A stretch of DNA of 64,000 bases from Candidatus Campbellbacteria bacterium GW2011_OD1_34_28 (lineage in GTDB: Bacteria > Patescibacteriota > Minisyncoccia > Phycocordibacterales > UBA12079), in contig CP011215.1 of the NCBI GenBank assembly GCA_001029775.1, positions 554,303-618,302 on the forward strand, read 5' to 3'. The translations under genes were made by a program, and so were the position numbers. The notes under the pieces were generated by a model. The model was not told the DNA's origin. It made no database searches and was given only the letters and a program-made list of their open reading frames with translations. Shown in pieces: positions 2,929 to 62,850 of this stretch (positions within the stretch are counted from its first letter, which is position 1; every line of letters starts with the position of its first letter).

Positions 2929-3375
2929 ATGAAAGTTATATTATTGCAAAATGTTGCAAAGACAGGTAGAAAATATGAAGTAAAAGATGTTTCCGATGGG
3001 TATGCTTTGAATTTTTTAATTCCAAACAAATTGGCAAAAGTCGCAACGGTTAATGCTTTGAGAGAATTGGAATCAGAAAGATTGCAACATGAACAAAATC
3101 AAAAAACCAAAGAGGTAGACTTGATTGAAAGTATTGAAAAATTGAAAGACTCAAGAGTGAGTATTTCAGCAAAGATTAATGATGAGGGAAAATTGTTTGC
3201 TGGAATTGATAAAGGCGATATTATAGATGCAATCAAAGATCAAAAAGCGCTCGAGATAAATCCTGACAATCTTGTTTTGGATAAACCTATAAAAGAAGCA
3301 TCGGAACACAAGATAACCATAAAGGTTGGGAAAAAATCAGCCGAATTTATTTTGGATATTGTGCCCAGAGATTAA
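2929..3375 (+). CDS. rplI: 50S ribosomal protein L9
   Basis: 148 aa. MKVILLQNVAKTGRKYEVKDVSDGYALNFLIP matches the L9 N-terminal domain. Confidence 0.85.
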   Translation: MKVILLQNVAKTGRKYEVKDVSDGYALNFLIPNKLAKVATVNALRELESERLQHEQNQKTKEVDLIESIEKLKDSRVSISAKINDEGKLFAGIDKGDIIDAIKDQKALEINPDNLVLDKPIKEASEHKITIKVGKKSAEFILDIVPRD

Positions 3376-5602: not shown

Positions 5603-6190
5603 ATGAAAGATTTGCAAAATATTTTAAAATTTACAAAATTACTTAATGAATTTCGTAAAATTGAAAGAATGAACCTTTCAAGCAGGGGAGATAGAAAAGA
5701 AAATGATGCTGAACATAGTTATCAACTAGCTATGCTTGGTTGGTATATTTCAACAACACAAAAAATGGATTTAGATTTTAACTTGGTTATTAAATATTCT
5801 TTGATTCATGATTTGGTCGAAATTTATGCAGGGGATACCTATGTTTACACCAAAAATATTGATCTTAAAAACAGTCAAAAAGAAAGAGAATTTTCATCTT
5901 TAGAAAGATTAAAATCTGAATTTGGAGAAATCTCGGATATTTTTGACCTTATAGAGGAATATGAGAAAAGAGAAAATAAGGAATCGAAATTTGTGTATGC
6001 GTTAGATAAGGTTGAACCAATGATAAGTAATTATCTTCACAGAGGTAAGGTTTGGAAAGAAAATAATATTAAACTGGAAAATATAATAAATCATAAAATA
6101 AATAAAGTAAGTGAGGATAAAGAAGTAGAAAGGATCTTTAAAAAATTGATTGAGCTTATGAGGAAAGAGGAAAAAGATTTGTTTAATTAA
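5603..6190 (+). CDS. HD-domain phosphohydrolase (YfbR/5'-deoxynucleotidase-like)
   Basis: 195 aa. DAEHSYQLAMLGWYI...IHDLVEIYAGD shows the H..HD..D metal ligand pattern. Confidence 0.65.
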   Translation: MKDLQNILKFTKLLNEFRKIERMNLSSRGDRKENDAEHSYQLAMLGWYISTTQKMDLDFNLVIKYSLIHDLVEIYAGDTYVYTKNIDLKNSQKEREFSSLERLKSEFGEISDIFDLIEEYEKRENKESKFVYALDKVEPMISNYLHRGKVWKENNIKLENIINHKINKVSEDKEVERIFKKLIELMRKEEKDLFN

Positions 6191-6352
6191 ATAGAGGTAT
6201 GCTGGTACCTCTATTTGTAGGGAGAAGGCCTAAAAGGCCCTGTTTATTTATTATTGCAGTGTCGCACAATATACCTTTTGCGACATTGAATAATCAAAAT
6301 AAAGCCCCCTCTTTATATATTTATAGTGTTCGAGAGGAGGCTTTTTATTGTA

Positions 6353-6697
6353 TTAGTTAACTAAATCAAAAAATATTTCTGCTTCTTCCTTTTGTGAAAT
6401 ACTTGAGAAAAGATAAGCTTGTTTATTTTTCATTGCTGTATCTATTTTATTGTATTTTTCTGTTCCTTCACAATATTTTAATACTTCAACAAAACTAAAA
6501 TCTTTTTCCAAGTACTGAATATACAAATTGGTCGAGTTTCTACTTTTTGCTTCAAAAACGTCCACAGTTGAGTCAATTTTGACCACAAGGATATAACAGC
6601 CGTTCTTTGAGTAGTTTGCTAACGCTTTTTCCTGATTGATAGTTAGAAATGTAATAAATACTAAACCTAAAAAGATTGCTACATTTTTCATCTGCAT
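6353..6697 (-). CDS. secreted hypothetical protein
   Basis: 114 aa with an N-terminal signal peptide (MKNVAIFLGLVFITFLTINQEKALA). Confidence 0.4.
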   Translation of the reverse strand: MQMKNVAIFLGLVFITFLTINQEKALANYSKNGCYILVVKIDSTVDVFEAKSRNSTNLYIQYLEKDFSFVEVLKYCEGTEKYNKIDTAMKNKQAYLFSSISQKEEAEIFFDLVN

Positions 6698-58731: not shown

Positions 58732-59205
58732 TCACTTTAACTTATTTTCAAATTCATTCAATAATTTTAAATATTCTAACTGTCTTTCTTTTTTTACCCA
58801 ACTCTCAGATAATTTACTCATATCGCCATTTTTCATAACTGAACTACACGGTGCACAATAAAAATTATCTTGAGTCGCAATAAAAATCCAGGGAGACTCC
58901 CAGCGCTTAAGAAGTTTTTCAGAATAATTTTTTATTTCTTCTAGATTGAAATTTTTTTGATATTTAACCTCCACAAGATATATTTTTGTTTTATCTTCAG
59001 ATACTAAAGCAAAATCAGGTGCTTCAGATATATTATCTATAACTTTTGGGACTTCTGAAATATGCCTATATTGAGCAAGTGTTGGCATTGTGTGTTCGTA
59101 ACCGAAAGGAATTACAGTATATTGCTCCTCCTCTCGAATCATTTGTTCAAAAATAACTTCCGCAATACGTCCTTTAATTAAATTTCTCGAAAAATCTATA
59201 TTCAT
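58732..59205 (-). CDS. hypothetical protein with PD-(D/E)xK-nuclease-like motif
   Basis: 157 aa. PDFALVSEDKTKIYLVEVKYQK is a D...EVK arrangement. Located just upstream of tRNA-Gln. Weak. Confidence 0.3.
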   Translation of the reverse strand: MNIDFSRNLIKGRIAEVIFEQMIREEEQYTVIPFGYEHTMPTLAQYRHISEVPKVIDNISEAPDFALVSEDKTKIYLVEVKYQKNFNLEEIKNYSEKLLKRWESPWIFIATQDNFYCAPCSSVMKNGDMSKLSESWVKKERQLEYLKLLNEFENKLK

Positions 59206-59269: not shown

Positions 59270-59340
59270 TGCGAGATCGTCTAATGGTAGGACTGCGGTT
59301 TTTGGTACCGCCTATCTAGGTTCGAATCCTAGTCTCGCAG
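59270..59340 (+). tRNA. tRNA-Gln (anticodon TTG)
   Basis: Acceptor tgcgaga/tctcgca. Anticodon stem gcggt/accgc with loop ttttggt (TTG). T-arm ctagg-ttcgaat-cctag. Discriminator g. CCA not encoded. Confidence 0.8.
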
Positions 59341-59543
59341 CAAAATGAACGAAGTGAAATTTTACTGCGGGACTAGAAACAGTACCTAAGTACTGTTTCG
59401 TAGGACTCGAACGGCGGAGCGGTTTACGATTTTTATTTTTTTCTGACACAAACAGAAAAAAATAAAAATTGTCGCGAGCCGCGTCCAGCGGTACTTAGTA
59501 AAATTTGAGCAAAGCGAAAAAGTTTACTTAGTAACCGCGGGAA

Positions 59544-59563
59544 GAATCCTAGTCTCGCAGCAA
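59544..59563 (+). repeat. 20-bp direct repeat of the tRNA-Gln 3' end (att-like)
   Basis: gaatcctagtctcgcagcaa at 59324-59343 and again at 59544-59563. Confidence 0.65.
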
Positions 59564-59780
59564 CGATAAACAAAAATACCGATTGAGGTATTTTAATTAA
59601 ACAAATAAAAACGACCACATTGTGGTCGTTTTCTCTCTGGTTTGCTCAATCCTGAAAAGCGGTTGAGCGAGTTGGATTGTCACCAGAGAAGGACATTCCC
59701 TCTCGCTTGACTATACATATAGTAACATATCAGATAGAAAAGTCAATAGTAACATCAATTATAAAATATCCTATATTTCA

Positions 59781-59855
59781 TTTACTTTTTAACTCAAATA
59801 TTGTAGTGTTTCAAATAGATTAAGAACTTTTAGAAAGCTTTACAAGGAGAAAAAG
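59781..59855 (+). promoter_or_regulatory. family-4 conserved leader (copy 2 at 62380-62454)
   Basis: tttactttttaactcaaatattgtagtgtttcaaatagatt.agaactttt.gaa..ctt...aaggagaaaa.ATG. Near-identical in both copies. Confidence 0.5.
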
Positions 59856-60227
59856 ATGAAAAAAATTGAAATTCCCTACTTTATTCAAATGCGAGGTTGC
59901 ATCAATTGTGAAATCTCAAAGAAACACAAAGAAAAAACTGGGAAAAAATATGGTTTTGACCATGAATTAATGTCTGTGTGTGTCATTAGAGGCTGTACTT
60001 CCAAAGGCTATAGCCTAGGACGACCATTTTTTGATATGGAACAACTTTTGGAAACTGTCCCTAAAAAAATTGAAAATCCAAAAAAAGCATTATCTCTTGT
60101 TGAACAACATCGTAATGATACAAAAAATAATTATGGTGTTTATTACAAAGAACTTGGTGTTGATATAGATGAAGCCTTTGATAATATTCGACGGAAAATT
60201 CAACAGCAATTAGACCTTAAACCGTAG
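59856..60227 (+). CDS. Cys-rich small protein
   Basis: 123 aa. CINCE and CVIRGC motifs. RBS aaggag. Confidence 0.45.
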   Translation: MKKIEIPYFIQMRGCINCEISKKHKEKTGKKYGFDHELMSVCVIRGCTSKGYSLGRPFFDMEQLLETVPKKIENPKKALSLVEQHRNDTKNNYGVYYKELGVDIDEAFDNIRRKIQQQLDLKP

Positions 60228-60238
60228 AGGAGAAATAA

Positions 60239-60616
60239 ATGACAACACACACATTTTCAAAAGAGTGGCCCGAGAGATGGGCAAGGTCAGATAAAGCATG
60301 GTCCAAGTGGAAAAAAGACGCAGAAAAAGGGAAATTTCCCAAACCAAGAGATCTCCAAAAGACTTGTGGTTATTGTGAAGAACATGGGGGAGTTTTTAGA
60401 GAAAAAGATCCTGACTGTGATAAATGTACTTTATATAAAAAATATATTTGTCACAACATCCTTCTTGTCCAAATGTCAGACATCCCCATATTTTGGTTAC
60501 TTGTTAGGGAACTTAAAAGAAACGAGATAGATAAACCTCGTGTGATCAGATTAATAAGCAGAATAGCCGATGCTATCAAAGAAGATGACCCTTCAAAAAC
60601 GACTGTTTCTGCATAA
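60239..60616 (+). CDS. Cys-rich small protein (paralog of 62455..62850)
   Basis: 125 aa. WPERW, CGYCEE, CDKC, and a conserved C-terminus IKEDDPSKTTVSA. Followed by twin hairpin terminators at 60625-60697. Confidence 0.5.
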   Translation: MTTHTFSKEWPERWARSDKAWSKWKKDAEKGKFPKPRDLQKTCGYCEEHGGVFREKDPDCDKCTLYKKYICHNILLVQMSDIPIFWLLVRELKRNEIDKPRVIRLISRIADAIKEDDPSKTTVSA

Positions 60617-62064: not shown

Positions 62065-62277
62065 TCATCCACAGGCTATGACACCGGCAACGATCCCATG
62101 AACAGGAACATGCGCAAATGTCTCTACGCCGAGGGTTTGCGCCTTCTGGTCATCATCGTGCAAATCGGGACGATCGTGAACTTCAGGCCGACGGTGATCC
62201 GCCAAATGGAATTCGTCATCGTCTTCCAGCAATAGCGATAGGTCTACTTCATCTTTTCTTCCTTTTGGGTCGGCCAT
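62065..62277 (-). CDS. small acidic hypothetical protein (GC-rich cargo)
   Basis: 70 aa. RBS aggagga plus ATG at 62277. Upstream TTGATT-18-TATTAT promoter. An about 200-nt G+C-rich ORF-free tail precedes the hairpin terminator at 61822-61846. Confidence 0.4.
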   Translation of the reverse strand: MADPKGRKDEVDLSLLLEDDDEFHLADHRRPEVHDRPDLHDDDQKAQTLGVETFAHVPVHGIVAGVIACG

Positions 62278-62454
62278 GTTCTTTCCTCCTGAAACTGGGT
62301 TAGTTAAAAATACATCTGATTAATATAATATTGTTTTTTAAATAAAAATCAACAGCAAGCAAAAGTTTAAACTTTTTTATTTACTTTTTAACTCAAATAT
62401 TGTAGTGTTTCAAATAGATTGAGAACTTTTTGAATCTTTGAAAAAGGAGAAAAT

Positions 62455-62850
62455 ATGCAAGAACAAGAAGAAAAACATGTCTATTCTGACAAATGGCCTA
62501 AGAGATGGAAAGAATCTTTGGACAAGTGGCAAAAAGTTAAAGAACTGCATCAAAACAATATTTCGAATATAAAAATTAAGATAAAAATAGGAGGAAGTTG
62601 CGGTTATTGTAAAGAATTTGGTGCAATTTCTCTTTCGAGTATACCATGCCTGAAATGTAGCCTTTTTCAGAAAAAAATTTGTATATGTTTAAGAGGAGAC
62701 GCTATAACATCTGGGCGTTTTGCATATTGGGAATTATTTAATGAACTCACTAAAAAAGATCACAGCAAAGAAATCATCAGCTCATGTATTGATAAAATAA
62801 TTACCGCCATAGAAGAAGACGATCCTTCAAAAGTGACGGCTTCTGCATAA
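62455..62850 (+). CDS. Cys-rich small protein (paralog of 60239..60616)
   Basis: 131 aa. WPKRW, CGYCKE, CLKC, and C-terminus IEEDDPSKVTASA. Confidence 0.5.
   Translation: MQEQEEKHVYSDKWPKRWKESLDKWQKVKELHQNNISNIKIKIKIGGSCGYCKEFGAISLSSIPCLKCSLFQKKICICLRGDAITSGRFAYWELFNELTKKDHSKEIISSCIDKIITAIEEDDPSKVTASA

Follow-up and report, generated by a model that had tools for sequence, protein, structure and literature searches.

A family of short structured elements behind tRNA genes, with a member at a tRNA-Gln gene of Candidatus Campbellbacteria

Introduction

The 3' ends of tRNA genes are the classic landing sites of integrase-bearing elements. Integration can also start from a folded single strand whose hairpin stem forms a replica of the target, as in the attP site of the CTX phage and the attC sites of integrons (integron core sequence GTTRRRY), and this process leaves the layout core, hairpin, inverted core, body and core. 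The present study deals with a 64,000-nt stretch of a Candidatus Campbellbacteria chromosome (hereafter the window; GC content about 33%), in which the same kind of site, the 3' end of a tRNA-Gln gene, is occupied by a short structured element that has no protein of its own.

In casposons the target includes the T-loop region at the 3' end of a tRNA gene and a segment is duplicated on insertion, the duplication being 15 bp long and overlapping the tRNA by only 5 bp (PMC5137440). At the locus studied here, the first-pass annotation of the window had noted a direct repeat of the tRNA-Gln 3' end downstream of the gene and had read it as an integration footprint, that is, as the remnant of a decayed island or as a hotspot at which the downstream gene modules had arrived. 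The comparison with other loci given below leads to a different view of the sequence between the repeats.

The tRNA-Gln locus

The tRNA-Gln gene (anticodon TTG/UUG) was intact and was the only tRNA called there by ARAGORN (Table 1); the Rfam tRNA model matched it at 59270-59340 with 58.7 bits. The 20-mer GAATCCTAGTCTCGCAGCAA was present exactly at its 3' end and again downstream, with a start-to-start distance of 220, and no third copy was found in the window even at three mismatches. None of 100 shuffles matched this repeat (0/100). On the tRNA it runs from G57 in the T-loop through the 3' strands of the T-stem and the acceptor stem to the discriminator and the following CAA. The repeat is as exact as had been annotated, and the hairpin GAAACAGTAC-CTAA-GTACTGTTTC (59376-59399), which had been pointed out between the two copies, is real. 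The statement that no open reading frame (ORF) lies between the repeats was also essentially right, since the only ORF overlapping the spacer region is a mechanical one of 61 aa on the minus strand (59433-59618).

It had been overlooked that the spacer also contains the end of the tRNA in inverted form. This inverted copy consists of TTTTACTGCGGGACTAG (59360-59376) and GTAGGACTCGAA (59400-59411), the two parts being separated by the hairpin just mentioned. The discriminator, the acceptor 3' strand and four T-stem bases have their reverse complement in CTGCGGGACTAG, with one G.U pair, and together with the preceding TTTTA (59360-59364) this segment makes a 17-nt inverted copy of 59329-59345, while GTAGGACTCGAA differs from the expected CTAGGATTCGAA by two mismatches. 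The spacer with the second repeat copy (59342-59563) gave a fold z of -9.6 against shuffles. In the minimum free energy (MFE) fold of the whole region the inverted copy paired with one repeat copy and the 5' strand of the tRNA with the other, and across the MFE folds the first part of the inverted copy took either repeat copy as its partner. In 59342-59563 ARAGORN called neither a tRNA nor a tmRNA, the Rfam models of both classes gave no match even with E relaxed to 10, and no further copies of the spacer were found in the window.

The spacer and the second repeat copy together are one complete copy of a structured element (about 59341/59365 to 59563), and this copy is a diverged, A/U-rich member of the family described in the following sections. 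A covariance model (CM) of the family, R1, was built from 14 members of its subtype B with the window left out, and when run on both strands of the window it gave a single match, the one listed in Table 1. This is a low score for the family (range 21-118 bits) because the hairpins P3 and P4 are long and A/U-rich there. The position of the window copy agrees with that of other members, with the tRNA ending at 59340/41, the inverted copy starting from 59360/65 and the R1 match from 59391, all on the same strand. Its core aligns to R1 as GAA-CGGC-GGAG...CGAG-CCG...P4, its 3' arm is the exact 20-mer from G57, and its P4 is that of subtype B (consensus GCCCAGAC...GUCGCGGGC).

A lineage specific to tRNA-Gln is formed by the window copy and those of loci L093, L063 and L108, in which a short A/U hairpin follows the tRNA and another hairpin splits the acceptor complement of the 5' arm from the T-stem complement. 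Locus L093 has the same duplication and architecture at a tRNA-Gln(UUG) gene, with the corresponding parts, a repeat of at least 24 nt and a spacing of 193 instead of 220, among flanking genes unlike those of the window. Its splitting hairpin, AAAUGUGC-CUAC-GCACAUUU, shows compensatory changes relative to that of the window, and so does its P4. Because no convincing terminator stands between the window tRNA-Gln and the element, the two are probably co-transcribed, judging from the sequence, and the terminator-like hairpin further downstream (Table 1) probably ends the common transcript.

Table 1 Features of the tRNA-Gln locus in the window
Feature	Position	Strand	Basis and remarks
tRNA-Gln (UUG)	59270..59341	+	ARAGORN, Rfam, exact-repeat search; proximal repeat copy = 59324-59343
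A/U-closed short loop region (CAAAAU...AUUUUA), tRNA end to inverted copy	59341..59364	+	Sequence, fold
5' arm part a, CTGCGGGACTAG	59365..59376	+	Sequence; MFE folds
Hairpin splitting the 5' arm, GAAACAGUAC-CUAA-GUACUGUUUC	59376..59399	+	Sequence, fold, comparison with L093
5' arm part b, GTAGGACTCGAA	59400..59411	+	Reverse complement of T-stem 3' strand and T-loop; family consensus xyzGGAUUCGAA
Core, first half	59412..59483	+	CM alignment; family covariation of P2 and P3
P2 5' strand CGGC	59412-59415	+	CM alignment
Invariant GGAG	59416-59419	+	CM alignment
P3, long A/U-rich hairpin	59420-59474	+	CM alignment
CGAG	59475-59478	+	Final G opens P2 3' strand GCCG (59478-59481)
Core, second half, P4: UCC-AG-CGG-[UACUUAGUAAAAUUU...AAAGUUUACUUAGUA]-A-CCG-C-GGGA	59484..59543	+	Fold, CM alignment, changes relative to L093
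3' arm (distal repeat copy), 3' strand of closing helix P1	59544..59563	+	Exact-repeat search, CM alignment
Match to covariance model R1	59391..59563	+	27.4 bits, E 4.6e-5
Bidirectional terminator-like hairpin, 44 nt past distal copy	59607..59633	.	Called on - strand; A-run before, T-run after

Size and distribution of the family

A scan for the 20-mer, with one genome per species, detected four further species with an identical 3' end, in tRNA-Gln(CUG). Nothing was present behind the tRNA in L009 and L010 (tRNA-Gln(CUG), same 3' end), whereas in L011 and L012 this tRNA 3' end was occupied and the layout was that of the window, i.e., a hairpin, an inverted copy ending in GGATTCGAA and followed by NNNCGGAG, more hairpins and, at the close, a partly decayed direct copy of the tRNA end. 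A search pattern derived from the layout of L011 and L012 (GGTTCGAATCC-N48-78-GGAYTCGAANNNCGGAG) was found at no fewer than 120 loci (at least 120) in metagenome contigs, and two motif patterns gave 0 matches in viral contigs. The T-arms upstream of the pattern loci were those of Gln, Trp, Asn, Ser, Tyr, Val, Pro, Thr, Lys, Ala, Arg and Ile tRNAs, and according to ARAGORN the elements are hosted by 13 tRNA types and tmRNA.

In the fetched loci (about 0.9 Mb), R1 produced 81 + 41 matches, comprising the window copy and 121 others, and no match in 12 control loci, which included the tRNA-Gln genes of L003-5 and L007-10. A tRNA or tmRNA gene was located on the same strand within 400 nt upstream of 71 of the 81 matches, at a distance of 12-68 nt for 67. 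Of the 121 tRNA and tmRNA genes in the carrier loci 69 bore an element, a proportion that is biased since the loci were picked for holding at least one. Among 119 unique loci, the closing segment of the unit was a direct copy of the tRNA end in 68 (two or fewer mismatches in 16 nt; 43 perfect). In these 68 loci with a clean distal copy, the latter was located 98-255 nt past the start of the inverted copy; none had more than 255 nt between the arms (0/68), and no kilobase-sized version was seen.

Several members may occur close together. In L043 (74-2259), five members were found within 2.3 kb, behind tRNA-Pro(CGG) (two in tandem), tRNA-Pro(UGG), tRNA-Arg and tRNA-Leu; both subtypes are present in this one genome, and the mutual identity of the copies is only 58-72%. 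In L072 (8480-9047), a tmRNA gene is immediately followed by a member whose arms match the T-arm of the tmRNA (GGGGAATTGAA / CAATCCCCCC), from which it follows that the family recognises tRNA-like 3' ends in general. Members were also observed behind T-arm-containing sequences that end in ...CCCGCCCCCGCAA and for which ARAGORN made no tRNA call (L026, about 3131-3333; L062, about 940-1142).

Structure of the family members

Each member consists, in order, of a hairpin, a 5' arm, a three-way-junction core and a 3' arm, the last repeating the tRNA from the T-loop (position 56/57) onwards to its end. The minimal form is about 100 nt long and can be written as [xyz'GGAUUCGAA]-NNNC-GGAG-[hairpin]-CGAG-N'N'N'-GG(G/U)G-[hairpin]-(C)GAAUCC-xyz-acceptor 3' strand. 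The hairpin between the tRNA and the inverted copy is longer in other members than in the window and is often terminator-like. The 5' arm is the reverse complement of the T-loop and T-stem of the member's own host tRNA, the T-stem match being seen in nearly all loci: the sequence immediately 5' of GGAYTCGAA is the T-stem of that very tRNA in reverse complement. A minority of the arms add the acceptor strand, and its exact 7-nt complement is kept in about a fifth of the elements (21 of 119). Non-standard T-loops (for example UUCAAAU, UUCGAUU and UUCGAGU) are likewise tracked by the arms, always as the reverse complement.

The core runs from GAA through helix P2, the internal loop GGAG/CGAG and P3 to P4. 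Pairing of the two arms forms helix P1, and the 5' arm can equally pair with the 3' part of the tRNA itself; with either pairing, the folded + strand holds a double-stranded replica of the target. P2 is formed by NNNC and GN'N'N' and includes covarying pairs such as CGCC/GGCG, AGAC/GUC, CAGC/GCUG and GCCC/GGGC, while P3 and P4 are hairpins of variable length. The base of P4 distinguishes subtypes A and B (alignments A1 and A2). As a separate observation, the two subtypes have the same two conserved hairpin loops (GCGACGGCG; CAGCAG/CAGUAG) with their P3 and P4 positions swapped, which hints at a loop-specific partner or at a modular rearrangement.

When 81 members were aligned to the covariance model, 92.9% of the cells assigned to pairs were paired, versus 68% in column shuffles and 35-50% with slid partners, and 513 cells were changed on both sides, versus 166 in the shuffles. 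The same compensatory pairs were obtained by RNAalifold on plain MAFFT alignments. The tRNA-sense (+) strand was 8 kcal/mol more stable than its complement, with this direction in 65 of 68 elements (p = 2.5e-12), and subtype A has an invariant G.U pair in P4. The stability bias and the invariant G.U pair indicate that it is the + strand which folds, either as RNA or as single-stranded DNA.

Other interpretations of the individual parts were also considered. The 5' motif (a 7-nt acceptor strand, 3 nt and GGAUUCGAA) may resemble the 5' end of tmRNA, and a tmRNA-like reading prompted by GGAUUCGAA was rejected: there was no ARAGORN or Rfam call and neither a T-arm nor a tag, and the motif is explained by its being the complement of the T-loop. 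A degenerate convergent tRNA on the minus strand was rejected as well, its T-stem being unable to form. The 5' arm is also not a direct copy of the 5' strand of the T-stem and the T-loop, such as would be left by a tandem pseudo-tRNA with an insertion, because the non-palindromic T-loops appear reverse-complemented (AATCGAA for TTCGATT; ATTTGAA for TTCAAAT). Readings of the core as a hammerhead, twister, hatchet or K-turn were unsupported by eye.

Boundaries, decay and tandem units

The 5' edge of the direct repeat was at C56 in 46, at G57 in 10 and at A58 in 12 of the 68 elements, and never further 5'. The 3' edge varied from the discriminator to +6, and the duplication was 17-26 nt long. Where the 3' arm departed from the tRNA, the 5' arm agreed with the tRNA base in 34 cases and with the changed 3'-arm base in 15; P1 is therefore not repaired in place.

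Truncated, tandem and nested units were common (L045, L052, L081 and L063). In tandem arrays the arms of the outer unit can match each other yet mismatch the resident tRNA. For example, the second tandem unit of L063 (- strand, locus about 2700-2900) has arms (CTGCGGGTAG...TCAGGGACTCGAA / GGTCCCTGACCCGTA) that are matched mutually and not to the resident tRNA-Gln. In L077 (8501-8967), adjacent units are found behind tRNA-Arg and tRNA-Lys with near-identical cores and with different arms, each of which fits its own tRNA. The identity of this pair is 87% over the whole CM matches including the differing arms, the cores differing at few positions by eye, and the leading hairpins differ. The pair could be the result either of recent copying with re-specification of the arms or of gene conversion. 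In the same locus a group I intron (6418-6645, - strand; Rfam 81.3 bits) adjoins tRNA-Val near a 'tRNA-???' called by ARAGORN at 6154-6240.

Flanking genes and searches for known relatives

The gene upstream of the tRNA-Gln (58732-59205, - strand; 157 aa), labelled PD-(D/E)xK-like in the first-pass annotation, contains no Pfam domain, so this label is only putative. At E <= 0.001 it had at least 268 homologues, the best 120 being 61-100% identical and the few named ones belonging to bacteria of the candidate phyla radiation (CPR), and its genomic context differed in almost every relative examined. As the gene is widespread yet not syntenic, no close empty-site allele of the locus was obtained. 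Downstream, the duplicated Cys-rich module of the first-pass annotation was confirmed (59776-60616 and 62375-62850): the 75-nt upstream regions (59776-59850 and 62375-62450) are 90% identical, and the encoded proteins (125 and 131 aa) are paralogues, 35% identical at E 9e-20, with a common C-terminus, ...EDDPSK(T/V)T(V/A)SA, and without a Pfam family. The Cys-rich genes were not seen beside the other family members inspected, which speaks against the idea of a hotspot for the downstream modules.

Two further observations were made in this part of the window. Just past the terminator-like hairpin and upstream of the Cys-rich pair, 59634-59716 contains a well-folding sequence (CUCUGGUUUGCUCAAUCC...GGUUGAGCGAGUUGGAUUGUCACCAGAG, z = -3.2) with no Rfam match, which may be a cis-regulatory or small RNA. 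A GC-richer patch in this AT-rich genome (61810-62290), between dnaX and the second Cys-rich gene, opens with the GC hairpin GGGCGGTGCTTGCGCACCGCCC and includes an acidic ORF of 70 aa on the minus strand (62065-62277); it matched neither Pfam nor Rfam.

None of the 30 window ORFs run against Pfam was an integrase, transposase or reverse transcriptase, the ORFs being either housekeeping genes or without a Pfam match, the latter few in number. Neither these genes nor tyrosine or serine recombinases were present among the precomputed domains around the window locus (L001) or in the vicinity of L012. Downstream of members without a clean distal copy, where long autonomous versions or linked enzymes were looked for, only housekeeping-looking genes were found, as judged by eye. 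With Rfam 15, at gathering as well as permissive thresholds, the window and 14 loci with canonical members gave only tRNAs and one group I intron, the sub-threshold matches being to unrelated miRNA and sRNA models. BLAST against phage and plasmid collections showed no similarity, the spacer of the window included, and a full-text literature search, in which conserved sequence strings were also used, returned nothing relevant.

Discussion

With a probability of roughly one half, the family is a selfish insertion element, non-autonomous and active as a folded single strand, that homes to tRNA and tmRNA genes at their 3' ends. A selfish and non-autonomous nature is suggested because occupied and empty sites both exist, many copies are present at different tRNAs and tmRNA, tandem and foreign-armed units occur, the arms decay and there is no coding capacity. 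Entry would take place by recombination of the tRNA gene with a folded single-stranded or circular form of the element across the shared segment from the T-loop to the 3' end, with the enzyme supplied in trans; alternatively, natural transformation could be followed by homologous recombination in which the tRNA and the repeat serve as homology arms. Insertion of this kind would keep the tRNA intact and generate the direct repeat, and the inserted copies would then decay. By analogy with the integration of folded single strands, the layout core, hairpin, inverted core, body and core would favour recombination across the segment from the T-loop to the 3' end.

Several points weigh against the selfish element. 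Its mobility is deduced from distribution only, as no excised or circular form, within-species empty-site allele or enzyme was seen, and the taxonomic range is known from only two named CPR genomes. The L077 pair could be the product of gene conversion between neighbours and not of recent transposition. Simple integrase-type recombination does not explain that both arms match the new tRNA, and the tandem units of L063, each with its own matched arms, fit insertion after the tRNA end better than a crossover in the T-loop. The percentages of paired cells are inflated, since the counts were made on a model-fitted alignment. Moreover, a functional RNA would also account for how strongly the core is conserved, with its G.U pairs and invariant junction bases, and for diverged copies (60-75% identity) persisting at numerous tRNAs within a single genome.

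This last possibility is the main rival and the less probable of the two. The element would then be a functional non-coding RNA that mimics the 'top half' of a tRNA and is transcribed with or after it; its closing helix would copy the stack of T-stem and acceptor stem and its 3' end that of a tRNA, so that it could be cut by RNase P, trimmed and CCA-tailed like one. The three-way-junction core would serve either to bind a protein or, by way of the 5' arm that complements the 3' half of the cognate tRNA, to act on the latter. Such a role is consistent with the strong covariation, with the invariant G.U pair and the conserved junction and loop bases on the tRNA-sense strand, with well-folded diverged copies behind 69 of the 121 tRNA and tmRNA genes of the carrier loci, and with the architecture common to the window and L093, which is maintained by compensatory changes. 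In the tRNA-Gln lineage, there is no convincing terminator before the element and there is one after it, and CCA is more frequent after the distal copy (19/68) than after the tRNA gene (12/68). However, at 59 of 119 loci the 3' half of the intervening hairpin contains four or more T in a row, and this hairpin is terminator-like by a strict perfect-stem definition in 23 of 68, statistics that are not decisive in themselves, and it leaves no room for a promoter. The low survival of the 7-nt acceptor complement (see above) and the mutations of the 3' arm that are uncompensated in the 5' arm are also difficult to reconcile with a tRNA-mimic, as are the many truncated, tandem or degenerate copies and the bacteria in which an identical tRNA 3' end has no element.

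The two remaining explanations invoke known kinds of mobile DNA. A parasite of the retroelement type, in which the 5' arm serves as a primer-binding site or the tRNA-like 3' end primes or tags reverse transcription, would have its RNA copied by a reverse transcriptase encoded elsewhere and its cDNA recombined at the tRNA gene. Reverse transcriptases (those of diversity-generating retroelements, DGR, and of group II introns) are common in CPR bacteria, and one DGR accessory gene was found in L002. The 5' arm complements about the last 20 bases of the tRNA (54-73), as a retroviral primer-binding site does, the repeat begins in the T-loop like tRNA 3' fragments and plus-strand strong-stop copies, and the bias towards an RNA-sense structure fits. 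Yet no reverse transcriptase is linked to any copy, the complement lacks the CCA, and the arm is at the 5' end of the element, where priming by the tRNA would copy almost nothing; no scheme was found that gives the observed orientation without a circular template. A retroelement is improbable. Still poorer is the case for a classical footprint, i.e., an integrase-encoding prophage or island deleted down to attL, attR and short arms, similar to a cis-mobilisable element (CIME). In its favour, many att sites likewise have repeats that begin in the T-loop, tmRNA is targeted too, and the downstream genes are poorly characterised and duplicated. The insertion-type duplication of the tRNA end recognised in the first-pass annotation is real, and its start in the T-loop falls in the region used by tRNA-targeting elements. 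The integrase, cargo and island remnant implied by a footprint were not found in the window. More than 120 independent loci share a structured interior of 100-255 nt, none of them with cargo or an integrase, and random deletion remnants would not share a covarying three-way junction. The interior at the window locus is a full-length conserved family member and not debris, the second repeat copy is the 3' strand of its closing helix, and the same arrangement recurs at L093; the footprint is therefore largely refuted.

If the preferred reading of a selfish insertion element is followed further, re-specification of the arms for each tRNA would mean that targeting proceeds by nucleic-acid folding and pairing rather than by a dedicated integrase. 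A tentative extension, against which the odds are somewhat tilted, is that the family represents an undescribed class, a protein-less 'guide-and-replica' three-way-junction molecule that homes by means of its built-in complement and copy of the target. This molecule might be a folded single-stranded DNA or RNA substrate of a host enzyme, or even a catalytic RNA. The family appears widespread in ultra-small bacteria of the CPR/Patescibacteria type, and in the carrier loci sampled it is found at a large share of the tRNA genes. If the arms truly set the target, the element would be a natural, minimal and reprogrammable module for site-specific insertion, and as a functional RNA it would amount to a new class of RNA linked to tRNAs, in organisms with extremely reduced genomes. 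Either of these readings accounts for many of the 'orphan tRNA-end repeats' which would pass for integration scars in annotation pipelines, and adds a well-supported covarying structure that is absent from Rfam.

Comparison with known systems

Elements that target tRNA ends are already known, and as far as the resources searched show, it is the protein-less structured form with target-matched arms that is new. With the integrative elements of tRNA and tmRNA genes (prophages, integrative and conjugative elements, islands and CIMEs), the family shares insertion at the 3' part, a repeat from the T-loop to the end, an intact tRNA and tandem arrays. It differs from them in its length of only 100-255 nt without integrase or cargo in more than 120 loci, in its covarying folded core and internal inverted copy of the target, and in that one family is found at 13 or more (at least 13) tRNA types with matched arms.

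The geometry and strand bias of integron attC sites and of the attP(+) of the CTX phage are analogous. There, too, a variable structured centre lies between two inverted copies of the core site, which give a duplex replica of the target; conservation is stronger in structure than in sequence, one strand is favoured, and CTX-phage integration results in the same layout of core, spacer, inverted core, body and core. In the present family, by contrast, the core is the tRNA 3' end and not dif or GTTRRRY, the latter being not apparent by eye; no integron integrase was found and neither IntI nor Xer is linked; there is no gene cassette or phage genome; and the centre is a three-way junction with invariant bases.

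Like MITEs (miniature inverted-repeat transposable elements) and the small repeats REP/BIME, Correia, RPE and ERIC, the elements are short, non-coding, multi-copy, strongly folding and non-autonomous. Unlike these, they have no terminal inverted repeats of their own, since the sole inverted repeat is the target copy, located at one end and adjoining a hairpin, and no fixed short target duplication, its length being variable; they are strictly at tRNA-like 3' ends, with arms copied from or matched to the target. Casposon or CRISPR-type integration beside T-loop palindromes of tRNAs is only loosely similar, as casposons carry terminal inverted repeats together with genes for Cas1 and a polymerase, all of which are lacking in the family. 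On the RNA side there is a resemblance to tRNA-like structures, minihelices and the tRNA-like domain of tmRNA, which have in common with the elements a closing helix made of the T-stem (sometimes with the acceptor) and a discriminator followed by CAA or CCA, whereas the elements differ from them by the lack of a T-loop, a D arm, an anticodon arm, a tag reading frame and G3:U70.

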